From a virus, in IMG/VR virus record IMGVR_UViG_3300044695_003432, positions 1 through 64,000 of that record: a stretch of 64,000 nucleotides of DNA. One strand, 5' to 3'. Below the pieces are notes generated by a model. That model worked only from the letters and a program-made list of their open reading frames with translations, was not told where the DNA came from and did not search any database. The position numbers and the translations under genes were made by a program. This document shows positions 6,111 through 12,142 of the stretch, in pieces. The number at the start of each line of letters is the position of its first letter. The first letter of the stretch is position 1.

Positions 6111-6472
6111 CGTCCCCCTCCAATCGCTTCCACGCCTGCGGGGGTGATCGCGTACACGTTCGCGGTGCGGCCCGTGCTGATCTTGCGGGTGCCGATCGCT
6201 TTCAGGTGCCCAAGTTCGTGAACCAACTCGTTCACGCGCGGGTTACAGGTGCTGGTCTGAATGTCCAGCAGTTCGCAAATGTCTTCCTGCGTCATGCCAT
6301 GCTCGCGCCAGTGCGGGGCATTGCACAGTCGAAGGATGCGGGTGCGAATCGTTATGCCGCGCCCGCTGCGGTCGGTCGCCCGTGCAGCCGCGATGCTGGT
6401 CGCGGTTCGATTGTGCGGTGCCGAAAACCTTTCGGTGCTGGCGGCGAAAAGGCTGGGGGTGGCGTCGTCCAT
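6107..6472 (-). CDS. Winged-helix DNA-binding protein
   Basis: GMTQEDICELLDIQTSTCNPRVNEL...TRKISTGRTANVY. Confidence 0.65.
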   Translation of the reverse strand: MDDATPSLFAASTERFSAPHNRTATSIAAARATDRSGRGITIRTRILRLCNAPHWREHGMTQEDICELLDIQTSTCNPRVNELVHELGHLKAIGTRKISTGRTANVYAITPAGVEAIGGGR

Positions 6473-6482
6473 GACGGGCTCC

Positions 6483-6695
6483 TTACTTGGCCTTGCTCAC
6501 GCGATCGAGGGCGAAGCAGCCCGAGATTCCAGCGAGCCACGCGACCGGCGTGTGCCCGCCCAGAACCGATGCGGGATTCGAAACCGTTGTGGTCTTGATG
6601 TCGCCGTTGTCCATTCGCACGTTCACCCGAGTACCGATCGGGCACGCCGCGTTGAACGAGTCCACCTTGTTTTGCAGTGTCGTTTGCTTGTTCAT
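6483..6695 (-). CDS. Hypothetical phage protein
   Basis: AGGAG RBS; FNAACPIGTRV...VLGGHTPVAWLAG. Confidence 0.6.
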   Translation of the reverse strand: MNKQTTLQNKVDSFNAACPIGTRVNVRMDNGDIKTTTVSNPASVLGGHTPVAWLAGISGCFALDRVSKAK

Positions 6696-6723
6696 ACTTC
6701 ACTCCTGCGGCGTTGCCGCGTAA

Positions 6724-6849
6724 TGGGACGGGTGGGAGTCGAACCCACGTTTCCGCACGCCGGGCAGGATCAGTGCCCGCATGTGCGTTGCGTCTCCTAC
6801 GAGCGGTGCAGTGCCTAGGTATCACTGCACTTCGCCACGCCGCCGTCCC
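6724..6849 (-). ncRNA. tRNA-like RNA with enlarged D-arm and extended anticodon arm
   Basis: Acceptor GGGACGG/CCGTCCC-A, T-arm GTGGG-TTCGACT-CCCAC, 7-nt loop CTGATCC; 126 nt. Confidence 0.6.
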
Positions 6850-7040
6850 GAAAAACCCGGCGTCCGCTTTCGCTTGACCGGATTCGCGCACACCAACACG
6901 GTGCCCAGATGCGCGGCCCCACGCGGGGCTTGAATCAGCCGCGCCCCCTTTCGAGAACGCGGATGAGGCTCAGAGAAACCCGCCCCGCGCGTGGCTGACG
7001 TGGGGCGAGTGAGAGTCGCGGTCGGAATGACCGCTTCGGA

Positions 7041-7451
7041 CTAAAAGGGCAAATCGTCGTCGGGAAGTGCGTTGGCGGTCGCCGCTCGCGTGGCGGGCTG
7101 CTGCTGCTCGCCCCCGCCCTTGCTGTCAACGAAGTGGAACGTGTCAACGACAACCTTCAACTTGGACTGCTTCTTGCCCGTGTCCTTGTCGTCCCACTGG
7201 TCGAGCTTCAACCGGCCCTCGATGAGAACGGGGCGACCTTTGCTCAGGTACTTCGCCATCACCTCGGCGGTCTTGCCCCAGGCTTCGCAATCAACGAACG
7301 TGACTTCTTCGCGCTTCTCGCCGCCCTGCGTGGTGTAGTTGCGGTTGAGGGCGAGGCCGATGCGGGCGATCTGTTGACTACCCCCGACCGCTTTCAGTTC
7401 AATGTCACGGGTGAGGTTGCCCATCAGCGTGACCCTATTCAGACTCGACAT
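7041..7451 (-). CDS. ssb: Single-stranded DNA-binding protein
   Basis: LNRVTLMGNLTRDIEL, IEGRLKLDQW, C-terminal DDDLPF. Confidence 0.97.
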   Translation of the reverse strand: MSSLNRVTLMGNLTRDIELKAVGGSQQIARIGLALNRNYTTQGGEKREEVTFVDCEAWGKTAEVMAKYLSKGRPVLIEGRLKLDQWDDKDTGKKQSKLKVVVDTFHFVDSKGGGEQQQPATRAATANALPDDDLPF

Positions 7452-7884
7452 CTTCACTGTCCTTTCCGCCCGCGAACACGCGGGCACGCTTCACTACCAA
7501 CTCGTCCTTCGTCTCGATCTTGAACCACTCGCGGGGCATGTCGGGGTGCGCCTCCATGACGCTCGACGCCTTGTAAGCCGTCTTTGTCTGGAACCGAAAC
7601 AACTCGTCCGGCCCACCCTTTTCCAACAGCCGTTGGCCAACCAGTACGGGTTCAACAACCTTCTTGGTCGTCTTGCGCCCGACGTAGTACCGGATGTCGC
7701 CGTTCACAATCTCCCGCGTGCCCAAGTACGCAATTGCCGCATTGCTGACGTTGGCCTTGAGTTCCCGCACGCGGGCGTTGAGCGTGTCAATCGCGTCGTA
7801 CATGCGGATCAGGTCGTGGTCGTTACCCATGCCGGACTCGATAATCACGGCGGCATCTTCAACCTGTTCAATGAGTCCCTTCAC
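7435..7884 (-). CDS. Hypothetical protein
   Basis: Coupled between the ERF and SSB genes. Confidence 0.6.
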   Translation of the reverse strand: MKGLIEQVEDAAVIIESGMGNDHDLIRMYDAIDTLNARVRELKANVSNAAIAYLGTREIVNGDIRYYVGRKTTKKVVEPVLVGQRLLEKGGPDELFRFQTKTAYKASSVMEAHPDMPREWFKIETKDELVVKRARVFAGGKDSEDVESE

Positions 7885-11019: not shown

Positions 11020-11066
11020 ATGCTTTCGTAAAGCATAGGTCCAGGGTTCAAATCCCTGAGGTGGCT
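11020..11066 (+). other. attP-like core: 3' portion of tRNA-Thr(CGT)
   Basis: ATGCT-TTCGTAA-AGCAT anticodon arm, AGGTC, CAGGG-TTCAAAT-CCCTG, AGGTGGCT; no canonical D-arm; abuts the integrase 3' end. Confidence 0.8.
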
Positions 11067-12142
11067 TTCGTTTGTGTGTCGATTGTGTGTTGATTCGTTC
11101 CGGCCACCGGCCCTGTCACTCCCGCCATGAACTGGCCCGACTGGAAGTAGTGCCGAGCCGCCACGTCCGCCCGATGCCCGAGCCATTCACACACAGCGTA
11201 GTGCGGGTGCTGCCCGTTCCAATCGGTTTCCAGACTCGCCCGCAGCCCGTGGAAGGGCTTGCCGGGCCATGTCACTCCCGCTTTCTTGCGGATGGACGTA
11301 GCCGCCCGAAGGTAGGAACCCTTCGGCACCGCCCAGCACAGTTCTGCCACGCCGTCCGGCAGGGAATCCCGAGCCTCTTCCAGAAGGGCGTAGAGCCTCG
11401 GAGAGACGGGCACCGTCCGCTTGGCCTGCTTGGTCGTCTCTACCCCGTCACGCGGCCACACGGCAATCGTGCGGGCTTCCCAATCGACGTGTCCCAACTC
11501 CAGCGTCATCGCCTCCATGATCCGCAGGCCGGCGTACCGGGTGAGGCCGAACACCAGCCGCCACGATGCGTTCGGGCAGGCGGCTATCACCTTCTCGACG
11601 TCATCGACCGAGACGTAGGGGTGATCCTCGGACTTCTTGGGCATGGGATTCTTGACCGAATCGAACGGGTTACGGCTGACCACGCCCTGAATCCGCGCGG
11701 CCTCGAACCATGACCGGAGAAACGACACGATCCCCCACACGGTAGAGGGTGAGAGAATGTCGCCGTCCTTGACGTTCCCGCGCCGCTGCTTCCGCAACCA
11801 CGCGATGAAGTCGATCGCCTGGGTGGGCTGGATCGTGTCGAGAACCGCGTCCTTGCGGAAGTAGCGTTCGGCCCATTGCATCGCGGCCTTGTACCGCGTC
11901 ACGGTCGCCTCGTTGAGTTGTTCGTTCTGCGCGAGGTACTTGGTCCGCCAGTCGTCCAGCGTCTTGGCGTCGGACTTGACCGCTTGCGGCGACATGTCCG
12001 CGCAGATGGCGAGGGCATCGCGCCGTGTCACTTCGGAGCGTGCCCCGATGATCTTTCGCTGGAGTGCGTTGTTACCGTCACGCCATGCCGCTACCCAATA
12101 CTTGTTGTTCGTCCACAATCGAACGGGTTTGCGCCGTGTCAC
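11048..12142 (-). CDS. int: Tyrosine integrase
   Basis: AGLR, K, FHGLR, LGH, HY catalytic residues; AAAGGAG RBS. Confidence 0.93.
   Translation of the reverse strand: MTRRKPVRLWTNNKYWVAAWRDGNNALQRKIIGARSEVTRRDALAICADMSPQAVKSDAKTLDDWRTKYLAQNEQLNEATVTRYKAAMQWAERYFRKDAVLDTIQPTQAIDFIAWLRKQRRGNVKDGDILSPSTVWGIVSFLRSWFEAARIQGVVSRNPFDSVKNPMPKKSEDHPYVSVDDVEKVIAACPNASWRLVFGLTRYAGLRIMEAMTLELGHVDWEARTIAVWPRDGVETTKQAKRTVPVSPRLYALLEEARDSLPDGVAELCWAVPKGSYLRAATSIRKKAGVTWPGKPFHGLRASLETDWNGQHPHYAVCEWLGHRADVAARHYFQSGQFMAGVTGPVAGTNQHTIDTQTKATSGI

Follow-up and report, generated by a model that had tools for sequence, protein, structure and literature searches.

An oversized tRNA-framed element downstream of ssb in a temperate T7-like phage of Phycisphaerales

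Results

The window examined here is a stretch of 64,000 nucleotides (nt), positions 1 to 64,000 of the virus record IMGVR_UViG_3300044695_003432 in IMG/VR, and our subject is a gene for an oversized, transfer RNA (tRNA)-like RNA of 126 nt on its minus strand (6724..6849), recognised by sequence and fold and present in one copy in the 85-kb record. The element lies downstream of ssb, in a gap that a first-pass annotation of the same DNA had described as hairpin-rich and 345 bp long; from the ssb stop at 7041 to the next ATG at 6695 the distance is indeed 345 nt. Read on the minus strand, as are all its parts below, the element has its 5' end at 6849 and its 3' end at 6724 (element position p is window position 6850-p), and its sequence is GGGACGG...CCGTCCCA.

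The minimum free energy (MFE) structure obtained with ViennaRNA is tRNA-shaped, with 39 pairs, 38 of them Watson-Crick, and no mismatch within any helix. Its energy is -59.6 kcal/mol (z -2.42; 4 of 200 shuffles are equally good), and the fold is retained when the entire 356-nt gap is folded. A perfect 7-bp acceptor stem with discriminator A, a canonical T-arm and the lack of an encoded CCA, all claimed in the first-pass annotation, are present: the 5' strand GGGACGG (6843..6849) pairs 7/7 with CCGTCCC (6725-6731), discriminator A73 stands at 6724 (3' strand and discriminator together, 6724..6731), and a TTA trailer (6723-6721) follows A73 directly. The T-arm, GUGGG-UUCGACU-CCCAC with a 5-bp stem (6748-6732), is evident from both sequence and fold and follows a 5-nt variable loop, GAAAC (6753-6749). 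Position 8 is C, not U. The arm in the anticodon position (6754..6787) is over-long, as the same annotation had it (CGCAC..CGGGCA-CTGATCC-TGCCCG..GTGCG, 6787-6754): 5 bp of CGCAC/GUGCG, a small internal loop and 6 bp of CGGGCA/UGCCCG give an arm of ~12 bp in total, which carries an insert of ~17 nt and is capped by the 7-nt loop CUGAUCC (6773-6767), with a U33-like U, the triplet GAU and then C37 and C38.

The enlarged D-arm (6790..6840) consists, in the MFE fold, of a 4-bp D-stem GCGU/ACGC (6840-6837 with 6793-6790), a 35-nt inserted hairpin GGCG-AA-GUGCAGUG with loop AUACCUAGG (6836-6802), and an unpaired strand CGUAGGAG containing GG (6801-6794), so that the D-loop measures 43 nt and holds a 12-bp hairpin. 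This region is the only one in which the MFE fold departs from the structure first proposed, a branched D-arm in which GCGT/ACGC enclosed two hairpins. The D-stem and the enclosed 8-bp hairpin GTGCAGTG/CACTGCAC are borne out, whereas the 3-bp CTC/GAG hairpin is not: the MFE structure lengthens the first hairpin by GGCG/CGCU, CGTAGGAG is then unpaired, and CUC/GAG is absent. The predicted arm would thus be better described as a D-stem, a GG-containing strand and one long inserted hairpin, with the 3-bp hairpin optional. In this fold both inserts prolong native stems coaxially and leave those stems unbroken.

Standard detectors do not recognise the element. ARAGORN called no gene, whether tRNA, transfer-messenger RNA (tmRNA) or tag, either in the window or in the 85-kb record, and at relaxed thresholds it returned 407 nonsense calls. 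No Rfam family reached its gathering score; the suggested checks with both programs thus returned neither a known family nor a tRNA. In the E-value mode of Rfam, the top match was to tmRNA (RF00023; 18.7 bits, E 2.2e-05, 6721-6849, gathering 47), in an alignment that spans acceptor and T-arm only and beneath which one weaker match of the same clan was dropped; a match to the mascRNA-type family RF01684 scored 17.4 bits against a gathering score of 42.5, and intron families gave no match, neither at gathering score nor at E<=10. Among canonical features the element has the 7-bp acceptor with discriminator, the 5-bp T-stem with a UUCRANY T-loop and, of a canonical D-arm, the 3-4 bp stem (here 4 bp) and the GG within CGUAGGAG; those that fail are U8, a D-loop of 7-11 nt, a 5-bp anticodon stem, a purine at position 37, and a call by any detector. 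When both inserts were deleted in silico, ARAGORN called a tRNA in 6146 of 11050 variants, as against 37 of 170 when only the D insert was deleted and none for the intact element. The frame beneath the inserts is a sound cloverleaf. The commonest call after double deletion was tRNA-Arg(gcg), 1275 times; since the deletion borders were chosen by us, the anticodon of such variants is arbitrary.

The bare motif, a T-arm with a 7-bp acceptor 60-260 nt away, is weak evidence of tRNA ancestry, because shuffling alone produced it in 13 of 100 windows. Chance is excluded by identities with parts of real tRNAs, and on this sequence evidence we regard the element as tRNA-derived and not a chance fold. 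Its acceptor is 7/7 identical to that of a Phycisphaerales tRNA(CAU) (L127:1449-1522, genome G394), and its 3' 29 nt are identical to the same gene at 27 of 29 positions, which makes 34/36 for acceptor and 3' end together. This tRNA(CAU) is probably a lysidine-type tRNA-Ile2, since its best matches in E. coli are genes annotated as tRNA-Ile (83.9% over 56 nt). The tRNA-Ile(GAU) of the host order likewise begins with GGGA and ends with UCCC-A-UU; its anticodon arm, for comparison, is CACCC-CUGAUAA-GGGUG. Other parts recall tRNA-Leu: the T-arm is 17/17 identical to that of the host-order tRNA-Leu(UAA), the motif AGACGCA agrees with the D-arm of host tRNA-Leu in its 3' half, positions 13-25 resemble the 5' half of such a D-arm (by eye only), and AGACGCA together with the element's T-arm denotes tRNA-Leu in 39 of 41 viral matches. 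A leucine-type frame was nevertheless rejected, and Leu identity not assigned, because the acceptor, variable loop and 3' end fit the class I tRNA(CAU) better. Among 29 distinct tRNA genes of the host order, none encodes CCA, 22 have TT after the discriminator and 28 have T8, so that the element follows the host norm in lacking CCA and having a UU trailer, and departs from it in its C8. The element thus shares its acceptor with the tRNA(CAU), its T-arm with tRNA-Leu(UAA), and A73, the UU trailer and the absence of CCA with host tRNA genes; its variable loop of 5 nt and its loop of 7 nt, in which a U33-like U precedes GAU, are likewise those of a tRNA. It differs from canonical tRNAs in C8, a 43-nt D-loop with a 12-bp hairpin, an anticodon-position arm of ~12 bp instead of 5, C37 and C38, and a length of 126 nt.

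Homologues for covariation, which the first-pass annotation had envisaged, were not found in any collection searched; these collections may mask the window's own and near-identical records. Positions 6400-7500 gave no blastn match among 50,697 phage records. The exact 25-nt 3' end of the element occurs in only one other viral contig, L002, from an unrelated phage, where it was read by eye as part of an unrelated tRNA-Leu(UAA) gene. Across 24 SSB-related loci ARAGORN called 0 tRNAs and the motif scan found a candidate at L006 only, and an acceptor-anchored scan of metagenomes gave 39 loci, none of them homologous. A first interior pattern matched 86 stretches in viral contigs, and the 80 listed gave 0 matches to a covariance model (R1) at E<=0.1; a second matched 0 stretches. 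The same model found only tRNA-Leu(UAA) and other ordinary tRNAs in five host genomes, and only one 72-nt stretch, probably an ordinary tRNA, in five related phage records. BLAST and pattern searches of 401 Phycisphaerales genomes gave only BLAST matches of 22-42 nt, most of them on the element's 3' end; the seven such loci inspected are ordinary tRNA genes, and a few short matches fall in the upstream spacer. The neighbouring proteins led to no related viral loci, and the 70-amino-acid protein encoded next to the element matched only itself in a large protein collection.

Two of the loci met in these searches are of some interest in themselves. L002 is a low-GC phage, and its gene (L002:2886-3155(+)) appears by eye to be a tRNA-Leu(UAA) split in the anticodon loop by ~190 nt, beside tRNA-Gly and tRNA-Asn, with no ARAGORN call and no intron or tRNA family of Rfam at gathering score. 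L006, whose SSB is 64% identical, carries a different tRNA-like RNA of 128 nt (L006:4194-4321(+)) at the end of a ~340-nt non-coding stretch after ssb; its D-arm is normal, its middle is branched and its loop reads CUUUUGC, and it gives no meaningful alignment with the element. Just upstream of it (L006:4143-4200(+)) is a match to the DUF3800-VIII RNA of 34.2 bits, below the gathering score of 40.2.

The virus is a 42-kb temperate T7-like phage of Phycisphaerales. The core of its phage attachment site (attP) is 47 nt long and corresponds to the 3' part of a tRNA-Thr(CGU) from the anticodon stem (11021-11067, plus strand). The host group is assigned because this core is exact in 55/55 Planctomycetota genome loci (47 under names in Phycisphaer-, 1 in Tepidisphaera and 7 in genomes labelled 'Planctomycetota bacterium'). 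The phage was found in 20 runs from 11 freshwater studies. Its leftward operon has the order Erf (8513-7881), SSB (7487-7041), the gap, a 70-amino-acid protein of phrog_9165, a winged-helix-like protein, a replication initiator and DnaB. The ssb gene (7041..7487) is recognised by Pfam SSB at 9e-29 and by phrog_44. It is followed by a hairpin-rich spacer (6885..7040) that is common to relatives without the tRNA-like element, as seen in an alignment with L004:3896-4115, and then by a terminator-like hairpin, AAUCCGGU...GCCGGGUU, with a T-run at 6855-6851 (6851..6884), which appears in the fold of the gap, still aligns with L004, stops 1 nt before the element and is not listed by a consensus terminator scan. 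On the other side, a trailer that is also the 5' untranslated region of the next gene (6696..6723) contains a hairpin GCGGC-AAC-GCCGC (6719-6707) and a ribosome-binding site AGGAG (6706-6702), and the ATG (6695-6693) follows directly, 28 nt from the element. The open reading frame that begins there (6483..6695, phrog_9165) is not specifically linked to the element: its homologues in F116-like Pseudomonas phages precede a helix-turn-helix regulator, and because no tRNA gene is annotated beside them, in phages whose 64-nt spacer at this place was not scanned for RNA, there is no sign of a partnership.

The closest relative that spans the gap is L004, with an SSB 78% identical. It has instead, directly after ssb, a homing-endonuclease gene with NUMOD4 and HNH_3 domains (L004:3547-3900(+)), and because of this gene we regard the intergenic slot after ssb as an insertion hot spot.

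Discussion

We suggest that the element is a phage gene for a tRNA-derived, non-decoding RNA that is excised by RNase P and RNase Z and serves as a tRNA mimic, a reading to which we give an even chance. A tRNA mimic had also been proposed in the first-pass annotation, with an anticodon nuclease decoy or an RNase P/Z processing signal as candidate roles, and of that proposal the tRNA-derived frame, the host-like processing context and the failure of decoding features (C8, the 43-nt D-loop, the ~12-bp arm and C37) stand, while the mimic or decoy step itself is hypothetical. In favour of this reading are the intact acceptor/T-arm minihelix of host type, A73, the UU trailer and the absence of CCA; a domain of this kind, acceptor plus T-arm, is what RNase P, RNase Z and the CCA-adding enzyme recognise. 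By analogy with tRNA biology, the RNA would be transcribed with the leftward erf-ssb-replication operon, RNase P would cut at G1 (6849) and RNase Z after A73 (6724), and the host CCA-adding enzyme would append CCA, giving a stable RNA of ~129 nt. The same cuts would part the ssb transcript from the downstream message, leaving an ssb message that ends in the hairpin and U-run (6884-6851) and a downstream message with a small hairpin at its 5' end, which lies 28 nt ahead of the ATG. The released RNA may then occupy a host tRNA-binding factor, such as a tRNA-directed defence nuclease or an enzyme acting on tRNA-Ile. It would be unable to read codons, given the excessive length of the arm and the non-canonical residues at positions 8 and 37; on an L-shaped tRNA, an arm of ~12 bp should move the loop far past decoding distance.

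The identity of such a factor is a matter for speculation. The Ile2-type acceptor together with the GAU loop suggests factors that read tRNA-Ile, although this is one sequence and the coincidence odds for the triplet are a few percent. In a specific version that we hold to be distinctly unlikely, the acceptor/T-arm of tRNA-Ile2, the GAU on a rigid, over-long arm and the D-loop hairpin as a handle would form an Ile-type decoy that binds an anticodon nuclease, TilS or IleRS and, after processing and CCA addition, would protect or reprogramme translation during infection of the planctomycete.

Several observations weigh against a functional mimic, and many of them bear equally on its main and serious rival, which we regard as possible though doubtful: that the element is a relic without function as RNA, left when a mosaic phage took up a host-type tRNA gene at a module junction, and that this gene, disrupted by two palindromic DNA insertions, is carried passively. 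The element appears to be an orphan, a singleton among the collections searched. L004 aligns with the window through the spacer to ~6855 and then passes straight to the ribosome-binding site, without the element, and a variant contig of 448 nt (run X15) aligns with the window only at 6846-7040, where it shows 17 differences and 9 gaps. Because the homology of both stops at its 5' end, the element begins exactly at a mosaic junction, in a slot that the NUMOD4/HNH gene of L004 marks as an insertion site. Canonical residues have been lost (C37 and the C8 that is so rare in the host order), a terminator-like hairpin lies directly upstream, and a search for a sigma-70-like promoter gave none. In four other freshwater runs, contigs span the element partly or fully with 0 differences and so offer no variation from which selection on the helices could be measured; furthermore, none of the 20 runs that bear the phage is on record as RNA. 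Against the relic, however, stand seven helical segments without a mismatch, inserts that extend native stems coaxially, and a T-loop and host-like TT trailer that are intact. The hairpin sequences are unrepeated in the 85-kb record, unlike those of a mobile palindrome, and a 42-kb phage genome would be under pressure to shed junk.

The element belongs to a leftward operon of several genes, begins 1 nt beyond a hairpin with its U-run and is separated by 28 nt from the following ATG, with a small hairpin and a ribosome-binding site in the trailer. This position would also suit a purely cis-acting punctuation, comparable to mascRNA or to the tRNA punctuation of mitochondria, in which the tRNA shape is only a cleavage signal for RNase P/RNase Z that parts the ssb message from the downstream one and stabilises both, the RNA cut out being without a function in itself. 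The host-like minihelix and trailer and the weak mascRNA-type match, far under its gathering score, agree with this idea, which we think unlikely: a plain minihelix or an ordinary tRNA would suffice, two long perfect hairpins and the GAU loop are left unexplained, and L004 manages without the element at the same junction. We consider it highly improbable that this is a decoding tRNA from which two inserts are removed after transcription to leave ~75 nt, for instance with the loop AUGCGGC (anticodon GCG, Arg), as the ARAGORN calls on insert-deleted variants would allow. The C8 would persist in such a product, the deletion borders were our choice and the anticodon with them, and the inserts, at 35 and ~17 nt, are too short for a self-splicing group I intron, for which at least 200 nt would be expected, and match no intron family of Rfam. 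An archaeal-type intron was rejected as well, since no 3-4-3 bulge-helix-bulge (BHB) was seen by eye at the insert borders and the splicing endonuclease domain PF01974 was found in 0/5 host-order genomes and not in the phage record, in a search whose control found it in 4 archaea. The intron-bearing tRNA that would have undone the first-pass proposal is therefore not what lies here. Nor is it at all probable that the element acts as DNA, as a second attachment site, an origin or a single-strand initiation signal. The gap is hairpin-rich and adjoins recombination and replication genes, and tRNA 3' ends are common att cores, one of which the phage has at 11021-11067; yet a whole tRNA is represented here, including the 5' acceptor strand, D-stem and T-arm and not only a 3' core, 4 kb from the integrase and the real attP. 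Finally, a miniature or unusual tmRNA, including a 263-nt version with GGGGCGG (6986-6980) as its 5' acceptor strand, would find support in the Rfam match over 6721-6849 and in the alternative 7-bp pairing from 6986 given by the motif scan, but this idea is effectively refuted. The match falls far under gathering and aligns only acceptor and T-arm, the 3:70 pair is G-C and not G-U, there is no tag frame, ARAGORN reports no tmRNA or tag in the 85-kb record, and 6855-7040 is common to L004, which has no T-arm. With ~90 nt between its halves, the element is too short for tmRNA, as first annotated; it is thus not a canonical decoding tRNA, a tmRNA or a known intron-bearing tRNA.

Two further candidates were tried and rejected in the 85-kb record: an antisense regulator, for which complements of the loops have no target, and a repeated promoter or mobile palindrome, for which there are no recurring 11-mers.

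A non-decoding tRNA mimic would have company among known RNAs. Oversized, non-decoding phage RNAs framed as tRNAs are already known, for example species 1 and species 2 of phage T4 (rnaC, rnaD), stable RNAs to which no function has been assigned. The likeness, which is one of description, lies in their being phage-encoded, oversized and tRNA-framed; the T4 species sit in the tRNA cluster of a large lytic phage, whereas the element stands alone in the recombination/replication operon of a 42-kb temperate phage. What is new is that a small T7-like temperate phage of planctomycetes has one such gene standing alone in its early operon, with hairpins in both the D-loop and the anticodon position and an Ile-like frame. 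With the tRNA-like domain of tmRNA (RF00023) the element has in common an acceptor and T-arm that frame a long insert, and it differs in having no G3:U70, tag frame or pseudoknots and in its distance between halves, which in tmRNA is >250 nt. The CI RNA of P4 and the C4 RNA of P1/P7 are phage regulatory RNAs matured by RNase P. With these and mascRNA/MALAT1 (RF01684), the element would share a tRNA-like fold within a longer transcript and cuts by RNase P at the 5' and RNase Z at the 3' side; its score against the mascRNA family is low, as given above, and the phage genome offers its loops no antisense target. In Y RNA and YrlA mimics, the Ro-binding stem is formed from the RNA ends and the tRNA-like module is permuted; in the element the ends form the acceptor stem, and no family of Rfam reached threshold. 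We know of no documented phage tRNA decoy that does not decode. According to one commentary, tRNA-Lys of phage T5 resists the AriB effector of PARIS, an instance of phage tRNA variants defeating a tRNA-cutting defence (PMC11455837). The element resembles T5 tRNA-Lys in that a tRNA-type molecule of a phage has a changed anticodon stem-loop, for which host defences that cut tRNA are a plausible cause; T5-type tRNAs are working replacements of cleaved host tRNAs, whereas the non-decoding element would act as a decoy. No phage tRNA-like RNA with hairpins in both the D-loop and the anticodon arm was found in the portions of the literature consulted (including PMC7609411, PMC11455837 and PMC7824862), the supplements of which may list candidates.

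If the RNA is made and stable, phage tRNA mimicry would not be limited to jumbo phages with tRNA arrays, and a 42-kb temperate phage would employ one tRNA-framed RNA, encoded in the early operon. To our knowledge, almost nothing has been established of phage biology in the Phycisphaerales. Such an RNA would also be a natural case of a tRNA scaffold accommodating large hairpins at two places, D-loop and anticodon position, a point relevant to substrate measurement by RNase P, RNase Z and the CCA-adding enzyme and to engineered tRNA scaffolds. The element joins the tRNA-shaped genes missed by standard finders. Should the Ile-type decoy be true, no counter-defence by tRNA mimicry would have been described before it from a small temperate phage of Planctomycetota; if the element is only a junction relic, it is ordinary.

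The acceptor-anchored scan brought to light a second kind of oversized tRNA. At 30 of the 39 loci (for example L027:1396-1522(-), L029:5267-5393(-) and L064:992-1118(-), with 27 further loci) it found one gene of 125-127 nt in phage-type tRNA arrays, beside tRNA-Glu(CUC); 25 of the 39 loci were checked with ARAGORN, which left this gene itself uncalled. It has a canonical cloverleaf (U8, AGCCUGG, 5-bp anticodon stem) with a hairpin of ~53 nt in the D-loop. An alignment of its 23 distinct sequences has 96.7% of cells paired, as compared with 40-49% when the controls were slid, and in 7 pairs both partners have changed; five of these pairs belong to the anticodon stem. A long hairpin enclosed by the D-stem is thus a design under selection in phage tRNA genes, which makes the D-arm of the element plausible as RNA; it is not homology, because the shared acceptor was imposed by the search pattern. 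The anticodon is UGU in most of these genes, UCU in L028 and L064, UAU in L032 and GUU in L038, and they probably decode, since they have a normal anticodon arm and loop and stand in tRNA arrays. We found no description of this gene in the literature searched. Apart from the acceptor, the class and the element have in common a 4-bp D-stem with a long hairpin, a length of 125-128 nt, no CCA and their being missed by ARAGORN. The class differs in its U8, a D-loop that starts with AGCCUGG, a 5-bp anticodon stem, a normal 7-nt loop and its tRNA arrays; the element has its insert 5' of the GG, an over-long anticodon arm and a place alone in an early operon, in a record with 0 tRNAs, and shows no sequence homology to the class beyond the frame.

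Further loci with this acceptor may be mentioned in passing. L042 carries a tRNA-Ile(GAU)-like gene with a D-loop insert of ~50 nt (L042:1506-1633(-)) and, adjacent to it, a 124-nt gene (L042:1371-1494(-)) that matches the Rfam tRNA family at 57.7 bits and receives no ARAGORN call. Three other tRNA-framed kinds of 114-118 nt with the same acceptor (L031:10465-10579(-), L044:502-615(+) and L047:236-353(+)) are called by neither ARAGORN nor Rfam. In peat-type metagenome contigs (L036, L039, L048 and L049) the acceptor GGGACGG belongs to ordinary tRNA-Lys(UUU) genes, with a second GGGACGG ~50 nt upstream that is probably trivial. We also note that the spacer upstream of the element (6885-7040, minus strand), which has no Rfam match, is conserved with L004:3896-4100 and with the X15 contig though the flanking genes differ, and that it could be a terminator/antiterminator or another RNA element.

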